Source: Eledone cirrhosa
Lineage: Eukaryota
Assembly: GCA_964016885.1 (NCBI GenBank)
Contig: OZ024741.1
Coordinates: 14,570,001 to 14,634,000 of the forward strand
Length of the DNA stretch: 64,000 bases
Direction of reading: 5' to 3'
In this document: piece by piece, positions 26,297 to 60,225 of the stretch
Position numbering within the stretch: the stretch's first letter is position 1
Layout of the letters: every line of letters begins with the position of its first letter
Made by a program: the position numbers and the translations under genes
The notes under the pieces: generated by a model
What the model saw: only the letters and a program-made list of their open reading frames with translations
Told to the model about the DNA's origin: nothing
Database searches by the model: none

Positions 26297-29176
26297 GTAA
26301 CTTTGAATAACTTTGAAATGTTTTGGCCAGTATTGGCCCAGGCCATGTCTAACTTAATAGCACCACCTGGCGAAGTCTTTCAATTCAGGATTTGGGCACC
26401 ATGGCCCATTCGAGAAGAGAATTACTGTTTGCGGAGACATATCCGGGTGTGGGTGGTTTGTCCGGGATTACTTGGAGGAATTTGTCCAAAGACTTCTTGA
26501 ATTTTGTGTGGTCAGTTTCTGTTTTGACGTGTCCTGGTGTGATGTTGAAGAGAGCAGGGCCGATTGAGGTGAAATAATTGTGCCGTATTGTTGTTATGAG
26601 TTGCGATTTAGATTTTTGAATGGGACGGATAGCACGGGGCCCAAGCCTTGGGTGTATCTTGAAGGCGATGCCAACATCATTTGGGCAGTGATGATGGAAC
26701 ATTTTCCACATCATGCAGATAATATAACGCTCACGGCGACGTTGGAGTGAGTAAAGTTTCAGGTTTTCTAATCGACCCCAGTAGTCAAGGTCTGACATGC
26801 CATCTATCTTTTTCGTGATTGCCCTTTGAGGAGCTTCAAGTTTCATGATACTTTGTTTCGTGTGGGGAGACCACAGTGGACAACAGTATTCAAGGTGTGG
26901 TCGGGCGAAAGTAGAGAAGAGAAGGATAATGGTGCGGGAATCTCTCGACTGGAAGGTTCTGAGGATCCAGGAACACATTCTGCGGGCCATGTCAACTTTG
27001 CTGCTTATATGCGTGGTCCAGCTTATATTGCTGTCCACGGTTACTCCCAAGTCTCTGATGTTGTTAGATGCCACGAGAGTTTCCCCGGAGGGAAGGGAGT
27101 ACGGGAGTTTCAGAGCATCCTCTTTTCCAAAGTGGATCAGTTCAAATTTGTCTTCGTTCAGTAACATGTTGTTCTTTTCTGCCCATTGGGTAACAGCCAG
27201 TAGGTCTGACTGAAGGCTTATCCGGTCATCCACGCCATTGATGACCTTTTGGAGCTTGGAATCATCAGCGAAAATTTTAATGTTGCTGTGTTTGATGATG
27301 TCAGTGATGTCATTAATATAGATGATGAAGAGAAGTGGGCCCAACACAGTGCCTTGTGGGACCCCACTACTGACTTTGGCTGGGCTTGATTTGACTCGCT
27401 CAACTACAACATGTTGGGTTCTGTTTGACAGGAAGCTCTTGATCCACTGCAGCAGCTTTCCAGTGACACCAATATTGGACAGCTTTCTCAGTAGAATGTT
27501 ATGATCAACCCTGTCAAAGGCCTTGCTGAAATCAAGGTAGATAACATCAGTGTTGGAACCCTCTCCCAAGGCTCTCAAAATGTCATCAAAGTGATGCAGT
27601 AGCTGCGTCAGGCAATCCCTTCCATTACGGAATCCATGCTGGTTGGAGTTCAGCATATTGTTACTCTCAAGGAAGTGGGTCATTCGCGATCTCACCACTC
27701 GCTCAAATACCTTAATGATATGAGAGGTGAGTGAGATTGGACGGTAATTCACGGCAAGGGATTTGTTTCCCTTTTTGAAAACTGGGACAACAGACTGGGA
27801 TAGAAGGTTTTCTGGCACATATCCAGCATCCAGTGAGTTCCGCCACAGATTTGCAAGAGGAGATGCAAGTTGGTGTTGACACGCCTTCAAGACACAAGCA
27901 GGGAACCTATCGGGACCTACTGCTGAATTATGCTTGATTTCCTTTATTGCCGCCAGGACATCAGGGGCGCCAAACGTTATGTCCGATAAGGTGTAATGGG
28001 GAGTAACATCGCCGATACAGCCCAGATCGGCCATATCAGGATTGCTGAAAACAGAGCAGTATTGTTTCTGCAGTATCTCACCCATGGTTTTAGCATTGTC
28101 TTGAAGAGTGCCATTTTCATCAATTAGAGGGCCAACAGTAGAGCCAGTGATTTTGTGTTTTTTTGCAAATGAAAAGAACACTTTGGGATTGAGTTTGATC
28201 TTCTCAATGGCCCAGGCCTCTTCAGCTCTTCTCTGATTGTTGATGAGGGACATTATGTTGTTTTGGAGGTTATGTTTTTTAATCTCTAGTGATGAAATGG
28301 CAGTCAAGTTGATGTGTTGCTGCTGACAGTATTTCAGCTTGTTGATTTTTTTGTTCGTTCTCTTAATTTTTCTGATGAGCGTTTTTCTATTTATAGGGAT
28401 TCTGCTCTTAGATTTGTTTATAGTTCTTAATGGGGTGTGTTTAGCACATATGTTTGTAACAGTGTCCACAAATGTCTGCCAGGACTTTTTGATGTTAGTG
28501 GGTGTATGAGTGTGCGTGAAGGACCAGTCGACATGTGCAAGATCATGACTGATCGCTTCCCAGTTTACATTGTGGAAATCCATAGCGTCAAACGGATGGA
28601 CAGGAGAGATGACATTGGGTTTGTATATTGGACGGTGGAATCTCAGATCACAGAGAACCATGTCATGATCAGAGAGTAGAGTTTTCTCCACTGCAATATT
28701 GTGGATATTGTCAGTGTGATTGCTGAAAATTAAGTCTAGGACGTTTTTGTGGCACCTCGTTGGTTCGAGCACCAGTTGGGATAGGAAGAAATCATCCATG
28801 AAGTCAAGAAGCGATTCCACAGCTTCCCTGTCAGAGGTTGAGGCAGAAGAACCTGGTGGCAGGCTGTTTGTGGACCAGTCAACTCCGGGGAGGTTGAAGT
28901 CCCCCATCATTAAGATGTTGTCAGGGTGACACTCTTGGATGAAACACTTTATGCTGTTGAGGCATTCCTTGAAGCATGGTACAGGCGTTTGGGGTGGCCT
29001 ATAGAGCCCAACTACTAATAGGTTGTTGGTTTGACTGAATACAGTGACTGCTTCACAGTATCCATTAGTGAATATGTTCATAGCCTCTGTTGAGAAAGAA
29101 TTATGGACATAAATGGCAGTCCCGCCCTTTCTTCTGCCAGCGCGATCAGCACGGATGGCTTTGAAACTTTTCACTG
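26297..29176 (-). mobile_element. CR1-group LINE, 5'-truncated within the endonuclease domain
   Basis: APE plus RT ORF, short 3' UTR, (TTCAAAGTTA)2 tail, inserted in a TA/TG microsatellite. Confidence 0.9.
26385..29174 (-). CDS. LINE ORF2: AP endonuclease plus reverse transcriptase (929 aa, uninterrupted, no true start)
   Basis: MGDFN, LDLIF, SDH (APE); [29 protein letters not shown] (RT); RPHLEYC and [11 protein letters not shown]-terminus typical of CR1. Confidence 0.9.
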
Positions 29177-29967: not shown

Positions 29968-30575
29968 CAGGTCACCAGTTGGTGCTACTGGTGACATGTA
30001 TCCCAGTACAACCTGTCCCATGGTCGGGTCTTTGGCGACTAAACTGGCAACCCCACCAAGGTTTCTTGATGAGGAGGGTGACTTTGGACATCCTGCAGGA
30101 CTAAAAACAAAACCTGTCAAAGGGCAAAGGAGCTCTTAAGAGTCAATGGCCATCTAAAATCACCAGGAGAGATGACCCCTTAGCCTTTGTCAATGCAGAA
30201 TTCTAGGAGAAGGAAAACTCTGATATAACACCTGCAACTCTGATGGTATCCAATGATGTAGACTTGTTCTTCTTTTTGGTAAATATCATCTTGGTTAAGA
30301 GAGTGGGACTGGCTTTGTGCAGTGCCTTTGCTCACTATAAAAGCTTCACGGCACAGGCATTGCTTTATATCTGGAGATCTCTCTGCACTTGTCGTCACAT
30401 GGTACCATGGGCCCAGCACTATGTGTCAATAATTGTCACAAGTGTAGTGTTTGTACCAGAGTTTTCAAGTCGCTGGCGGAACTAAAAAGTCACACTCGTT
30501 CAGCGCATCGGTAGGGGTTCTCCTACATGGATATAAAGTAGTGGCCGTACTCGAAAACGAGTTGGCAGCCACCAT
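29966..30575 (+). mobile_element. Family X, full length
   Basis: Colinear with 23466-24073. Confidence 0.9.
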
Positions 30576-44581: not shown

Positions 44582-44766
44582 AGGATTGGCAGTATCGGTA
44601 GAGTGTCGGACGCCATGCTTTACAGCAAAGAGTTACGGCCCTTTATGGTTTGAGTTCAAATCCTGCCGAGGTTAACTTTGCCTTTCATCCTTACGGGGTC
44701 GATAAAATAAAGTACCAGTAATGCACTGGGTAATTGCTGGCCGTGTGCCAAAAGTAGAAACAATTG
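44582..44766 (+). mobile_element. SINE family 1
   Basis: Family match. Confidence 0.9.
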
Positions 44767-44767
44767 T

Positions 44768-45140
44768 TATAAAGCAGTGAGACGGTTTAAAGTGTCCATC
44801 CCTTGTTTATTATATAATCCTGTTATACGTATTTCAAAGACATCAAAGGGAATGCATATTAACCCTTTGACGTGCCCTCATCAGACAGGCGTTAAGTTGT
44901 AATGTTTTGTTTTTGATATATTATAATATTTAGGAGGGTTATGGTAGCAGTCCCCTACCTGTAAGCATGTGATGTACAGAACTGTTTCTATAGGCAAGCA
45001 GGGTCGGGGGAGATATTACTCTTGCTACAACTTAACATCTGTCTGATAAAGACACTTTGATGTCTTTGAAAAACAACAGGATTATGTCATAAATAGAGTA
45101 TGAACACTTAAAACCGTTTCTCTTCTTTATTATAATTGTT
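44768..45140. mobile_element. Fold-back element, family D
   Basis: Diverged arms ~44768-44901 / 45026-45131 ending in TA. Confidence 0.7.
44819..44889 (-). ncRNA. Type I hammerhead ribozyme motif
   Basis: Minus strand: CCTGT-CTGATGA-gggcACGTCAAAGGG..CCCTTTGATGTcttt-GAAA-TACGTA-TA-ACAGG. Perfect stem I, palindromic stem III; the mirror copy is decayed. Confidence 0.85.
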
Positions 45141-45224
45141 ATATATATATATATATATATATATGAAGATCCCGTTAAGGGTGAAAGCAGCGATTCTTTG
45201 CTTAAACTTTAATCTGTTATTTTA

Positions 45225-45321
<97 letters not shown>

Positions 45322-45438
45322 AGTATGTACACGTACATACATATATGTATACAGACGTACAGTATGTACGTGTACATACTTATATTTAAGTAACAGCCGT
45401 ACTAAGAGTGGGAAATGAAATTATGTTTCATTTTTTCC

Positions 45439-45501
<63 letters not shown>

Positions 45502-45509
<8 letters not shown>

Positions 45510-46217
45510 TAACAGATTGAAGTTTAAGCAAAGAATTCTTCTGAAACTAAAAAAGTCAATCTGTGAACGCAGAACTGGATATTTCAAAAAACGTTGCAAC
45601 CTGAGGAAGACAGGAAGACGATACTTTGGTTCGTGGAAACGTTCCCTGGCAAAGAACGGGAAAAAACGAATATAATACGTCATTAATAGGAGCGGTGAAA
45701 AACAATTACACGCAAAGATAGGATCACGTTTATGGTATAAAAGAAGTCGTAGACTAAAGATCTCTTAGGTGGTTCATGGAGATGTTCTCTGGCAATGAAC
45801 GGAAAAAACGAAGATAATACGTCATATGTGGAGCGTGGAGAACCACCTAAGGGAACTTTAGTCTACGACTTCTTTTATACCCTAAACGTGGTCATGTCTT
45901 TGCGTGTAATTGTTTTTCACCGCTCCTATTAATGACGTATTATTCGTTTTTCCCGTTCTTTGCCAGGGAACGTTTCCACAAACCAAAGTATCGTCTTCCT
46001 GTCTTCCTCCGGTTACAACGTTTTTTGAAATATCCACTTCTGCGTTTACAGATTGACTTTTTTAGTTTCAGAAGATCCGTTAAGGGTGAAAGCAGCGATT
46101 CTTTGCTTAAACTTTAATCTGTTATTTTAATAAATATTTGCTCTACGGTTCTTATATATTTGATATATATTTATCCTTATCGAGCCCTCTTTGGATTTTA
46201 GTCTTCAAATTTATTAT

Positions 46218-46222
<5 letters not shown>
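45502..46222. mobile_element. Longest family A fold-back element
   Basis: Arms ~45502-45775 / 45841-46132. Right arm has the CAGAAGA hammerhead-like motif (46064-46113) and tail; left arm has the core deleted. More family A pieces at 45165-45232 and 46372-46523. Confidence 0.8.
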
Positions 46223-46270
<48 letters not shown>

Positions 46271-46290
46271 AATTATATATTTATATACAA

Positions 46291-46358
<68 letters not shown>

Positions 46359-46418
46359 AATTGTTTCTACTACTAATAATAAATGTGAAGACTAAAATCC
46401 GAAAAGGGCTCGATAAGG

Positions 46419-46468
<50 letters not shown>

Positions 46469-46515
46469 GCAGAGCAAATATTTATTAAAATAACAGATTA
46501 AACTTTAATCTATTA

Positions 46516-46581
<66 letters not shown>

Positions 46582-46585
<4 letters not shown>

Positions 46586-49905: not shown

Positions 49906-51351
49906 GGTGGCTGCCAACTCGTTTTCGAGTACGGCCACTACTTTATATCCATGTAGGAGAACCCCTACCGATGCGCTGAACAAGTGTGACTTTTTAGTCC
50001 AGCCAGCGACTTGAAAACTCTAGTACAAACACTACACTTGTGACAATTATTGACACATAGTGCTGGGCCCATGGTACCATGTGACGACAAGTGCAGAGAG
50101 ATCTCCAGATATAAAGCAATGCCTGGTCTGTGAAGCTTTTCTTTTATAGTGAGCAAAGGCACTGCACAAAGCCAGTCCCACTCTCTTAACCAAGATGATA
50201 TTTACCAAAAAGAAGAACAAGTCAACATCATTGGATACCATCAGGGTTGCAGGTGTTATATCAGAGTTTTCCTTCTCCTAGAATTCTGCCTTGATAAAGG
50301 CTAAGAGGTCATCTCTCCCGGTGATTTTGGATGGCCATTGACTCTTACTTTACTGTAGCACCGGCTCAGAGCAGGAGAGTTAGGGCGAAAAAGGTATCGG
50401 ATGCTGAATTTGCCGACGACATAGTTTTGGTGACAAATACAGTGAAGGAGGCAGAGGATTTGATGCGGGAGGTTGAGACTGTGTCGATGAGTGTGCGGCT
50501 GAGAATGAATGAGACTAAAACAAAATATCTGGTAGAGAATGTTGAGAAGCCAGAGGGGATCACTAATGTAGGCGGGAAGCCGCTAGAATTGGTTGAGGGC
50601 TTCCTGTATTTGGGAGCAAAGATTGGGAATACGGAAGATGATGTGGTTGAGAGGAAGAGCAAGGCCTGGGCGGCGTGCCACAGCTTGAGATCGGTGTGGA
50701 AGTCGGACCTTCGTAGAGACCTGAAAATCCGCCTCTTCATTGCTGTAGTGGAGTCTGTGCTGCTGTATGGGTCTGAGACTTGGACACTGACCAAGAAACT
50801 CACTCAGATGGTGGATGGGTGCTACACAAGAATGCTGAAGATGGCTCTGAACATTAATCAGTATACACTGAGGATGAAAAACTCAGAGCTGTATGGGAGC
50901 ATCCCAAAAGTCAGCTCAAAAGTGACACAGAGGAGACTGAGGTTAGCTGGATATGCTCACCGACATCCAGAGTTGACATTGCACTCTGTGCTCCTTTGGG
51001 AGCCCCTACATGGACACACTAGAAGCGGAAGACCAAGGTTAACGTATGTTGTTGTCCTAAGGACAGACACTGGTCTGTTGGAGACGCAGGACATGGCAGC
51101 GATAATGAGGGACAGAGACCACTGGTGAGAACACGTCCATGGATCTCGGGAATTTTACCCGCCTTAGAGATTGACTCTTAAGAGCTCCTTTGCGCTTTGA
51201 CAGGTTTTGTTTTTAGTCCTGCAGGATGTCCAAAGTCACCCTCCTCACCAAGAAACCTTGGTGGAGTTACCAGTTTAGTCGCCAACGACCCGACCATGAG
51301 ACAGTTTGTACTGGGATACATGTTACCAGTAGCACCAACTGGTGACCTGAC
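49904..51351 (-). mobile_element. Family X interrupted by an RTE insertion; extra 3' tip at 51380-51458
   Basis: The two halves rejoin to the sequence seen uninterrupted at 25001-25030. Confidence 0.9.
50348..51169 (+). mobile_element. RTE LINE 3' fragment nested in family X
   Basis: FADD..LLYGSETW open frame; duplication ATTGACTCTTA at 50337-50347 and 51170-51180. Confidence 0.92.
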
Positions 51352-52556: not shown

Positions 52557-53153
52557 TATTACTTAACATCTCTCTCCATATTATTTACTCACTTCAGTCT
52601 ATATTTTTACTCACCTCAATCCGAATTATCACCTGAAAAGAATTTTTTTTAAATTCTTAAATTTCTAATTGTTAATTTCTTAATTGTTTAATTTATAATT
52701 TCTGATATTTGATTTAGGATTTTAATTTTTATTTCCAACTCTCACACTTAACTTCCAACGTAAAACCATGATACCTAGAATTAAGTTTATTTTCCCTTAT
52801 AAGGTGATGGTCAGTCGTACCGTCAACGCTTAGTGAGGGGTAGTATTATGACCTACTCTCCCACCCCCTCTGGCTCTCGGCTGACTGCCACAGCCGTGAT
52901 GGGTTGCAGTAAAATATGGTCCAGGCATTGGTGGGCCATTGTTTTGGCTGGGGGGGTGAACTGACTAAGCGAATTTCGTTGAAATCTGCGGTGGCTAATG
53001 GTCAACTTCCTTCGGACATACTCTTGCGCAGGCCGGTGGGGGGTGAATTGGTACTCACAAGGGAGCGGATGAAAAATCCCAAAACACGCAATTCATCCGT
53101 TCCCATGTCGATCCAATTTGGATTGCCTCGGAAACAACCTTATTATGTAACAA

Positions 53154-53227
53154 GCTATCTGATGATGCCACGACACTCGCACACAGAACAGTGTGGCCAG
53201 TGTCGTCATTGAAATATATATCACAGC
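53154..53227 (+). ncRNA. Type I hammerhead ribozyme motif
   Basis: GCTAT-CTGATGA-tgccACGACACT..AGTGTCGTcatt-GAAA-TATATA-TC-ACAGC (one stem I mismatch); ATTAAA follows, TA tract about 125 nt downstream. Confidence 0.75.
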
Positions 53228-53347
53228 ATTATTATTAAAGTTGAACATCTGAAACTACTTCGCTTTTCCTTATTCGATATTTACTCCGTCACTCCTATGT
53301 GGAAAAAGTACGTTGAGTCCTTGAATTGAATTGCATCAATGTTTACC

Positions 53348-53413
<66 letters not shown>

Positions 53414-53417
<4 letters not shown>

Positions 53418-53680
53418 ATTAGAAAGTGAACAGCACAAAATATAACTACTCCATTACCAAAGGTTTCTGGATCCCAGATAATATTAATATAGTCTGGATC
53501 GAACATCTCTGTCTGACGACCGATCCAGACGTATATTATTATTGTCTGTGATCCAGAAACCTTTGGTAATGGAGTAGTTACATTTTGTGTTGTTCACTTT
53601 CTAATTAAATAGCTCTGTTCTATACATAGAGCACTCTTTTTTCCTTGGCATTTTCTTCGGAATTACCTAACATATATATC
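53414..53680. mobile_element. Fold-back element, family E
   Basis: Arms ~53414-53501 / 53521-53610; right arm continues as a tail; TA flanks. Confidence 0.75.
53508..53573 (+). ncRNA. Type I hammerhead ribozyme motif
   Basis: TCTGT-CTGACGA-ccGATCCAGAC..GTCTGtGATCca-GAAA-CCtttGG-TA-ATGGA; GUA cleavage triplet. Confidence 0.7.
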
Positions 53681-59751: not shown

Positions 59752-59758
<7 letters not shown>

Positions 59759-60225
59759 AAGAGTGAAGAGTAACATGGTTCGCTGTACAATAAGGGGCTT
59801 TATTTAAAGTACTGACAATTGTTTCGTTGATCAGGTGAGTCTAGAGTTCGCTATTCGCTTGAAGTTGCGTCACTCGATCTCCATATATACGTACTCTTAT
59901 GTGTTGACCAGAGGTAAATAATGTATTGGAGATCAAGCGATGCAACTTCAAGCGATTAGCGAACTCTTGACTCACCTGATAAACGAAACAATTGTCAGTA
60001 CTTTAAATAAAGCCCCTTATTGTACAGCCAACCACGTTACTCTTCATTCTTTAACTATTATTACTCCAAGTATAACCTGCATAGGAATTACCGCGATCTC
60101 GCTGCATAACTATGGAAGCATCTTGTTGAGTCAAACAAAGCCGTACGTTAAAACTATCCACGACGCAGAGTACTCACAACCTCTAACTGGATTACCTATA
60201 ACGATAATTTGTTTTCCCATATATA
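59752..60225. mobile_element. Fold-back element, family F, with degenerate hammerhead
   Basis: Arms ~59752-59883 / 59927-60058; GTACT-[CTTATGT]-long stem II-GAAA-CAATTG-TC-AGTAC at 59891-60001; AATAAA; tail to TA. Confidence 0.7.

Follow-up and report, generated by a model that had tools for sequence, protein, structure and literature searches.

Type I hammerhead motifs with a conserved C–C mismatch in stem II in a 64,000-nt stretch of Eledone cirrhosa DNA

Analysis of a 64,000-nt stretch of Eledone cirrhosa DNA (hereafter, the window) revealed a type I hammerhead motif on the minus strand at 44889–44819, for which self-cleavage is predicted. The motif comprises a 5-bp stem I, the catalytic core, a 42-nt stem II segment, GAAA, TACGTA, UA and the return strand of stem I (Table 1), and the CUGANGA core, GAAA and UH follow one another in the order that defines type I hammerheads. 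Its stem II, like that of all other intact copies found in the window, contains a C opposite a C at the fourth position from the core; judged from sequence, this design is possibly a new structural variant. The perfect stem I of this copy, as given in the preliminary description, was confirmed. The 11-bp stem II given there exists as well (with one G–U pair), but the C–C mismatch and three G–U wobbles stand between this helix and the core.

None of the Rfam hammerhead models matched the window at the gathering score, or the region 44700–45150 at E-values up to 10. The only Rfam match in the window at the gathering score was a tRNA-like SINE head, and the region 44700–45150 gave two weak, unrelated matches.

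Table 1. Coordinates of the focal motif, its carrier and the other hammerhead-like sequences of the window.
Feature	Position	Strand	Remarks
Stem I, 5' strand	44885–44889	−	5/5 pairs with 44819–44823
Catalytic core C3–A9 (CUGAUGA)	44878–44884	−	N7 U/A-variable within the family (position 44880)
Stem II, basal 5' strand (10.1–10.3)	44875–44877	−	three G–U wobbles with 44836–44838 in the focal copy
C10.4 of the C–C mismatch	44874	−	motif scan and six-locus alignment
Distal stem II	44840–44873	−	11-bp helix (44863–44873 with 44840–44850, one G–U) and 12-nt loop
C11.4 of the C–C mismatch	44839	−	motif scan and six-locus alignment
Catalytic core G12–A15.1 (GAAA)	44832–44835	−	
Stem III self-complementary octamer	44825–44832	−	A15.1, TACGTA (44826–44831) and U16.1
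Predicted cleavage site, after A17 at 44824	44823–44824	−	triplet AUA; predicted from the hammerhead consensus
Stem I, 3' strand	44819–44823	−	5/5 pairs with 44885–44889
AAUAAA	44806–44811	−	13 nt behind the predicted cut
Putative 5'-truncated retroelement end-piece with ribozyme	44759–45025	−	3' end adjoins the tail of the SINE-like repeat 44583–44773
Inverted, shorter, decayed partner	45026–45140	+	G8 lost, most of stem II and palindrome deleted; ends in (TA)n
Intact motif, group distinct from the focal one	615–684	+	insert TGTTCA; C–C at stem II position 4
Intact motif	997–1066	−	insert TATGTA; C–C; best predicted fold among the six
Decayed inverted partner of the 1056− copy	1247–1317	+	one C of C–C and core mutated
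Head-to-head intact pair	17424–17492 and 17613–17681	− and +	insert TATGTA; C–C
Head-to-head intact pair	25183–25252 and 25397–25466	− and +	insert TATATA; C–C; same family as 17623
Motif with one stem I mismatch	53149–53232	+	insert TATATA; C–C
Hammerhead-like 3' half	59976–59996	+	lacks G8 and stem II; not intact

Hammerhead motifs of the window

Intact motifs, i.e., those with the exact CUGANGA core, stem II and stem I, were found at six loci (625+, 1056−, 17623+, 25407+, 44884− and 53159+, named by position and strand). Two further intact copies, 17482− and 25242−, are inverted twins, which brings the number of intact copies to eight. Based on flank similarity, 17623 and 25407 represent one family, so that the six loci fall into five sequence groups. 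A blind descriptor, which asked for the core and stem II only and for nothing concerning stem III, detected seven motifs, and all seven had a 6-nt insert, UH and stem I; 53159+ was under the stem II threshold of this descriptor. The motif set is far above chance: 200 block-wise dinucleotide shuffles gave, on average, 0.44 core-plus-stem-II matches and 0.06 full motifs per window, and none with a 6-nt insert. A covariance model run on the window returned the eight intact and two decayed copies, along with three more matches at E-values above 1. When one core mismatch was permitted, a single additional site appeared, which lies within a LINE reading frame and has a broken GAAA.

The proposed structure is supported by co-variation. 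In the six-locus alignment, both-sided changes were observed in 12 of the 17 named pairs, a value reached by none of 500 shuffles; they involve all five pairs of stem I and five of the eight columns of stem II. Slid registers pair 25–48% of the cells, as compared to 85% in the proposed register; this control is biased towards the structure, since the latter was derived from the same six-locus sequences. Pair 10.1–11.1, which is usually G–C in type I hammerheads, is A–U at two loci, G–U at two and U–U at the remaining two. Position 11.1 is U at all six loci, and C is found there in 39% of the depth within the family of the focal copy (the 44884 family). The U–U pair at the base of stem II is a tolerated variant according to Perreault et al. 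2011 (PMC3088659).

The seven hexamers quoted in the preliminary description are all located where it placed them, and six of them do lie between the GAAA and UH of intact hammerhead motifs. The seventh, at 59989, was rejected as a hammerhead: CTGATAA stands in place of the core, just 2 nt lie between it and GAAA, both G8 and stem II are missing, and it was missed by the scans as well as by the covariance model. The inverted twin of this sequence likewise lacks G8. The region 59752–60058 is an inverted pair with 132-nt arms (93%) that contains the 3' hammerhead-like half only, with AATAAA behind it, and is perhaps a copy that has lost its 5' half. A seventh motif (53513+), absent from the preliminary description, was observed on the plus strand at 53508–53573, with an inverted partner at 53412–53491. 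It has a 7-nt stem III insert, by which it resembles Hydra-clade motifs of Penelope-like elements (PLE) (rows of Craig et al. 2021, PMC8557442, File S2), and can close a 3-bp hairpin (+0.4 kcal/mol). Viral and metagenome contigs were also searched with a pattern placing no constraint on stem II, which gave 17 and 60 loci, respectively. None of these 77 loci has a convincing stem II; they were rejected as hammerheads, treated as chance matches and kept as a control.

Truncated copies and their likeness to known elements

At four of the six loci the intact motif has a head-to-head inverted partner (946–1368, 17386–17719, 25136–25513 and 44759–45140), and such partners also accompany the 53513 and 59989 motifs. 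In many pairs one of the copies extends further 3' than the other, and (TA)n follows at the ends: it is present within about 250 nt downstream at five of the six loci, while the sixth adjoins a SINE tail and has a partner that ends in (TA)n. In two inverted pairs (with damaged copies at 45033–45085 and 1247–1317), core and stem III are damaged in one copy only, its partner being intact; G8 is missing from both of the damaged copies.

In composition the window is typical animal DNA, with long microsatellites, pieces of LINE reverse transcriptase and tRNA-derived SINE-like repeats. The SINE-like repeat, which we take to resemble cephalopod SINEs, is about 190 nt long and high-copy (44583–44773, and near 5452, 12856, 13094, 14966, 16770, 22806, 31158 and 54895); its copy at 44583–44773 meets the ribozyme element tail to tail. 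In four copies of a dispersed repeat (23839–24009, 24646–24816, 30341–30511 and 49968–50201), the reading frame has a weak C2H2 zinc-finger match just below the Pfam cut-off. Another repeat family (45132–46583, 227–498 and 16633–16770) is nested and inverted around (TA)n, and the hammerhead scan found no motif in it. On the minus strand at 26388–29100, between (TA)-rich tracts, lies a LINE reading frame that appears intact and encodes AP endonuclease and reverse transcriptase. The 387-aa stop-to-stop frame at 5784–6947 (minus strand) has an ordinary composition and is probably a transposon remnant.

Neither a PLE reverse transcriptase nor a GIY-YIG domain (Pfam) was found in two sets of 146 and 150 reading-frame pieces of the window (the second set being 150 of 154 candidates), as expected for short 5'-truncated copies. 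Published PLE hammerheads occur as solo motifs and as opposite-strand motif pairs 100–700 bp apart (PMC4209133), published PLE insertions have an inverted truncated copy and a tail, and (TA)n targets are described for the Neptune and Hydra clades (PMC8557442). The copies of the window follow the published pattern of 5'-truncated PLE insertions, with an inverted copy, a longer 3' tail and a (TA)n target, and they look like 3' end-pieces of PLEs. Because no PLE protein piece was found, this assignment rests on layout. Same-strand tandem repeats of 150–450 bp with the motif, i.e., the layout of non-LTR retrozymes, were absent from the window.

At all six loci AATAAA or ATTAAA starts 5–13 nt past the predicted cut, as compared to 0.11–0.12 expected per 22-nt A+T-rich window, a pattern that was noticed post hoc. 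This hexamer may be the poly(A) signal of the element. Since several published PLE hammerhead rows carry AAUAAA in the same flank (PMC4209133 supplement), it is not special to the C–C variant.

The comparison with the literature draws on parts of PMC4209133, PMC8557442, PMC3088659, PMC11167929, PMC6765202, PMC7229834, PMC6962438 and 10.64898/2026.07.22.740005. With the PLE hammerheads of Cervera and de la Pena 2014 (PMC4209133; D. willistoni, Aedes, shrimp and rotifer rows), the window motifs share type I topology, the exact core, a short helix I and a long helix II, as well as the palindromic helix III, the solo and opposite-strand copies and the A+U-rich flanks; the D. willistoni row also has a 6-nt insert and U–U at the base of helix II. 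In contrast to these published motifs, those of the window have neither the G10.1–C11.1 consensus nor an extra base after A9. The strict min-HHR of the same paper has no loop 3 (only 15.2 and 16.2 are found between GAAA and UH), an extra base after A9 and G10.1–C11.1. The window motifs, with a 6-nt insert and an on-register stem II without the extra base, were rejected as members of that class.

Hydra-clade PLE hammerheads (Craig et al. 2021, PMC8557442) share with the window copies the (TA)n targets, the location of the motif near the 3' end, the inverted 5'-truncated copy and the frequent U–U or G–U at the base of stem II. However, the inserts of the Hydra-clade rows are 7–8 nt long in 26 out of 26 cases and their stems II are mostly short, whereas the window motifs have 6-nt inserts and a long stem II; moreover, assignment to this clade requires the protein, which is absent from the window copies. 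The satellite and retrozyme type I hammerheads (Perreault 2011, PMC3088659; PMC7229834) share the 2-bp stem III with a palindromic tetraloop and the 6-nt palindrome between GAAA and UH. Unlike the window motifs, the canonical satellite and retrozyme motifs described in these sources have a 4-bp helix II, loop I–loop II contacts, a tandem array arrangement and a second stem III pair that is mostly C–G.

Stem II mismatch and stem III palindrome

All eight intact copies (six loci, five groups) have the same stem II design, which the preliminary description does not mention: three basal positions, a C opposite a C, an R–U pair and a longer helix. The C–C column is unpaired in all six rows of the alignment, while both-sided changes are seen in five of the other seven columns of stem II. 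A C–C at stem II position 4 was found in none of the 12 shuffle matches and in one of the 77 chance pattern matches from viral and metagenome contigs. In the decayed copy 1247–1317, one C of the mismatch is gone, and the core is gone too.

Members of the 44884 family were surveyed in four public sequencing runs (X1, X2, X4 and X21) at 80% likeness, which yielded 296, 307, 129 and 198 records, respectively. X1 and X2 belong to one sample and X4 to a second organism; X1, X2 and X4 consist of contigs, and X21 of reads. The summed depth, which is no copy number, is near 6000 over stem III, as compared to 6.6 over unique sequence in X1; the family is plainly large and is present in the second organism (X4) too. 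C11.4 is altered in about 1% of the depth in X1 and X2 and in 28% in X4 (2 contigs), and no change of C10.4 was seen among the variant rows listed (40 of 105). A loose-end consensus behind 44848 (X2, X4 and X21; minus strand, by eye) has other 5' arms with the C at position 4 kept, and these arms are not independent of the 44884 family.

Among 56 rows of Cervera Fig. S3 (PMC4209133, by eye), none has a C–C at position 4 of a helix II that extends past it, and none of the 34 rows of Craig File S2 (PMC8557442, by eye) has a C–C at this position. The motif strings gave no matches in the supplement of Craig 2021 (PMC8557442), where line breaks may hide some. The design is thus seen in none of these 90 published rows, and no description of a C–C mismatch in hammerhead stem II was found in the literature compared.

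Stem III of the focal copy is self-complementary and too weak for a monomer, as in PLE hammerheads with a palindromic helix III. A monomer would form at most two A–U pairs on a tetraloop (+4.7 kcal/mol), while the octamer homoduplex has 8 bp and −6.5 kcal/mol, in agreement with the preliminary description, in which the inserts were considered too short for a stable hairpin yet self-complementary or nearly so. The homoduplex energies of the other types are −3.2 (TATATA), −2.2 (TATGTA) and −1.8 kcal/mol (TGTTCA). Over the six loci, three inserts are perfect palindromes, two are fully paired via a central G–U and one has a central U–U; the background per hexamer is 2–5% for perfect palindromes and 8–11% when G–U is allowed. 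Across families the two outer stem III pairs are constant, and a single both-sided change was observed, at the third pair. Across families there is thus little to support the earlier statement that symmetry persists while the sequence varies, 17623 and 25407 being one family; the statement fares better within the 44884 family. There, changes at the two inner positions, 44827 and 44830, reach nearly the same depth (X1, 637/5370 and 660/5403; X2, 616/5037 and 600/5131; X4, 310/2279 and 331/2293), as predicted by a both-sided change to the TGCGCA type; the family variants are unphased, and the variant rows listed are 40 of 105. In X21, the minus-mate reads show 146/162 changes at each of the inner positions but have few start sites, so that they perhaps represent one locus, and the changes in plus-mate reads are unequal (10/19 vs. 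5/19). The central CG has decayed in 8–19% of the depth of the family, which accounts for the TATGTA insert type.

Folding was predicted with nearest-neighbour models for single strands, tertiary contacts being outside the models. For the focal copy, these predictions do not bear out its earlier designation as the best test candidate: the probability is 0.01 for the correct stem II register and 0.85 for a trapped A9. The G at 10.3 lets the arm shift by one base, so that G10.3 pairs with C11.4 and A9 is trapped. The majority of the 44884 family has A at 10.2 (44876, 493/508 of the depth in X1) and at 10.3 (44875, 461/508), and the focal copy differs at both positions. For the 1056− copy, the predicted probabilities are 0.86–0.89 for the right register and 0.92–0.98 for four stem I pairs. 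Shifted stem II registers with a bulged C were considered and rejected; they have lower energy in three of the six copies, are impossible in the others and trap A9. A-to-I editing was also rejected as the source of the focal G–U pairs, four of the nine majority differences listed being A to G on the ribozyme strand. No same-strand member of the 44884 family was found in the window, and the partner at 45026–45140, which lies on the opposite strand, cannot serve as a dimer partner. Since, in addition, a read-through RNA over the inverted pair would fold onto the inverted twin (the core is predicted to pair with the far arm, P 1.0), the genomic focal copy is probably inert.

Proposed mechanism and its alternatives

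Dimer cleavage via the palindromic stem III, which is published for this class of ribozymes, appears to be the most likely design. In this model, the ribozyme would be a 5'-truncated remnant of a Penelope-like retroelement, namely of the terminal repeat (pLTR) at its 3' end, and the parent element would be transcribed in tandem. Pairing between the self-complementary stem III octamers of two same-strand copies would give a single helix of 8 bp and, with it, two complete catalytic junctions; the RNAs would both be cut after A17 to release unit-length RNA, while one copy alone would cut poorly. On balance, we regard cleavage of a tandem PLE transcript after A17, through pairing of same-strand octamers and formation of both junctions, as fairly probable. 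Palindromic stem III with dimer cleavage, including that with 6-nt inserts, is already published (Perreault 2011, Cervera 2014): the stem III palindrome is drawn as a dimer, with 6-nt inserts for Schistosoma and Nematostella (Perreault 2011, PMC3088659, Fig. S8), and a review cites Lunse, Weinberg and Breaker (RNA Biol 14:1499) for small PLE-linked hammerheads with a short stem III and dimer cleavage. The preliminary description had taken the window motifs for minimal hammerheads that cleave as dimers. Dimer cleavage is indeed published for the class, but the motifs are not minimal as that term is used in the literature, and the form they do have, a 2-bp stem with tetraloop, supports monomer cleavage in many invertebrate retrozymes. 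The slow cutting of PLE dimers in vitro (Cervera 2014, PMC4209133) and the weakness of three of the six homoduplexes (−1.8, −2.2 and −2.2 kcal/mol) also count against the dimer model.

A ribozyme of the same origin might instead cut as a monomer with a 2-bp stem III and tetraloop. Its stability would then come from a tertiary contact involving the C–C or from the protein of the element, and the palindrome would permit dimers without their being required. The efficient monomer cleavage of invertebrate retrozyme hammerheads with 2 bp and a tetraloop (PMC7229834) speaks for such a possibility, as does a PLE hammerhead of Anolis that cuts only with its protein (PMC11167929). Furthermore, the C–C is located four positions from the core, which is about where loop II makes contacts in canonical motifs with a 4-bp helix II (PMC4209133), and the 53513+ motif is able to close its short hairpin. 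On the other hand, both stem III pairs are A–U here, and the hairpin at +4.7 kcal/mol compares with +1.9 and +2.4 kcal/mol for two published C–G octamers. The inner tetraloop changes symmetrically in the 44884 family, which would be needless for a monomer. By eye, the stem I flanks offer no conserved partner for the C–C, and no consistent position for a G–G partner was seen in them. Monomer cleavage is considered unlikely.

An origin of the copies as non-autonomous retrozymes or SINE-like repeats, and not as PLE end-pieces, would agree with the lack of any PLE protein remnant in the reading-frame pieces of the window, and type I hammerheads whose loop III is palindromic are indeed present in animal retrozymes (PMC7229834). 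Retrozymes, however, form same-strand tandem arrays and have loop I–loop II contacts (PMC7229834), whereas the window has no same-strand tandem but unequal head-to-head inverted pairs with a short stem I and a long stem II, which makes this origin quite improbable. It is even harder to credit a genuine core in which both the symmetry of stem III and the C–C are mere passengers of A+T-richness, CpG decay and common descent. TATATA is indeed cheap in this genome, where perfect palindromes make up 5% of the unmasked hexamers, the five sequence groups possibly belong to one clade, and C11.4 is absent in over a quarter of the X4 depth (the 28% from two contigs given above). Against such passengers stand the constancy of the C–C column amid five stem II pairs that change on both sides and the rarity of the mismatch among the chance and shuffle matches.

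Beyond the dimer model, the motifs may represent a subtype of retroelement hammerhead that has so far gone undescribed: a long helix takes the place of loop II and carries, four positions from the core, an invariant C–C followed by R–U. The C–C might then be a functional docking site for the stem I flank or for the reverse transcriptase of the element. Together with the AAUAAA that lies 5–13 nt behind the cut, the C–C might also make a switch, whereby a paired tandem transcript would be cut and lose its poly(A) signal, while a lone one would be polyadenylated. This reading is put forward tentatively, and we consider it rather doubtful as a whole. PLE hammerheads are slow in vitro, are without recognised tertiary contacts and, in one case, are protein-dependent, hence the interest in an invariant C–C. 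Being fixed while its neighbours co-vary over five sequence groups, the mismatch is a concrete candidate for the activation site of these ribozymes.
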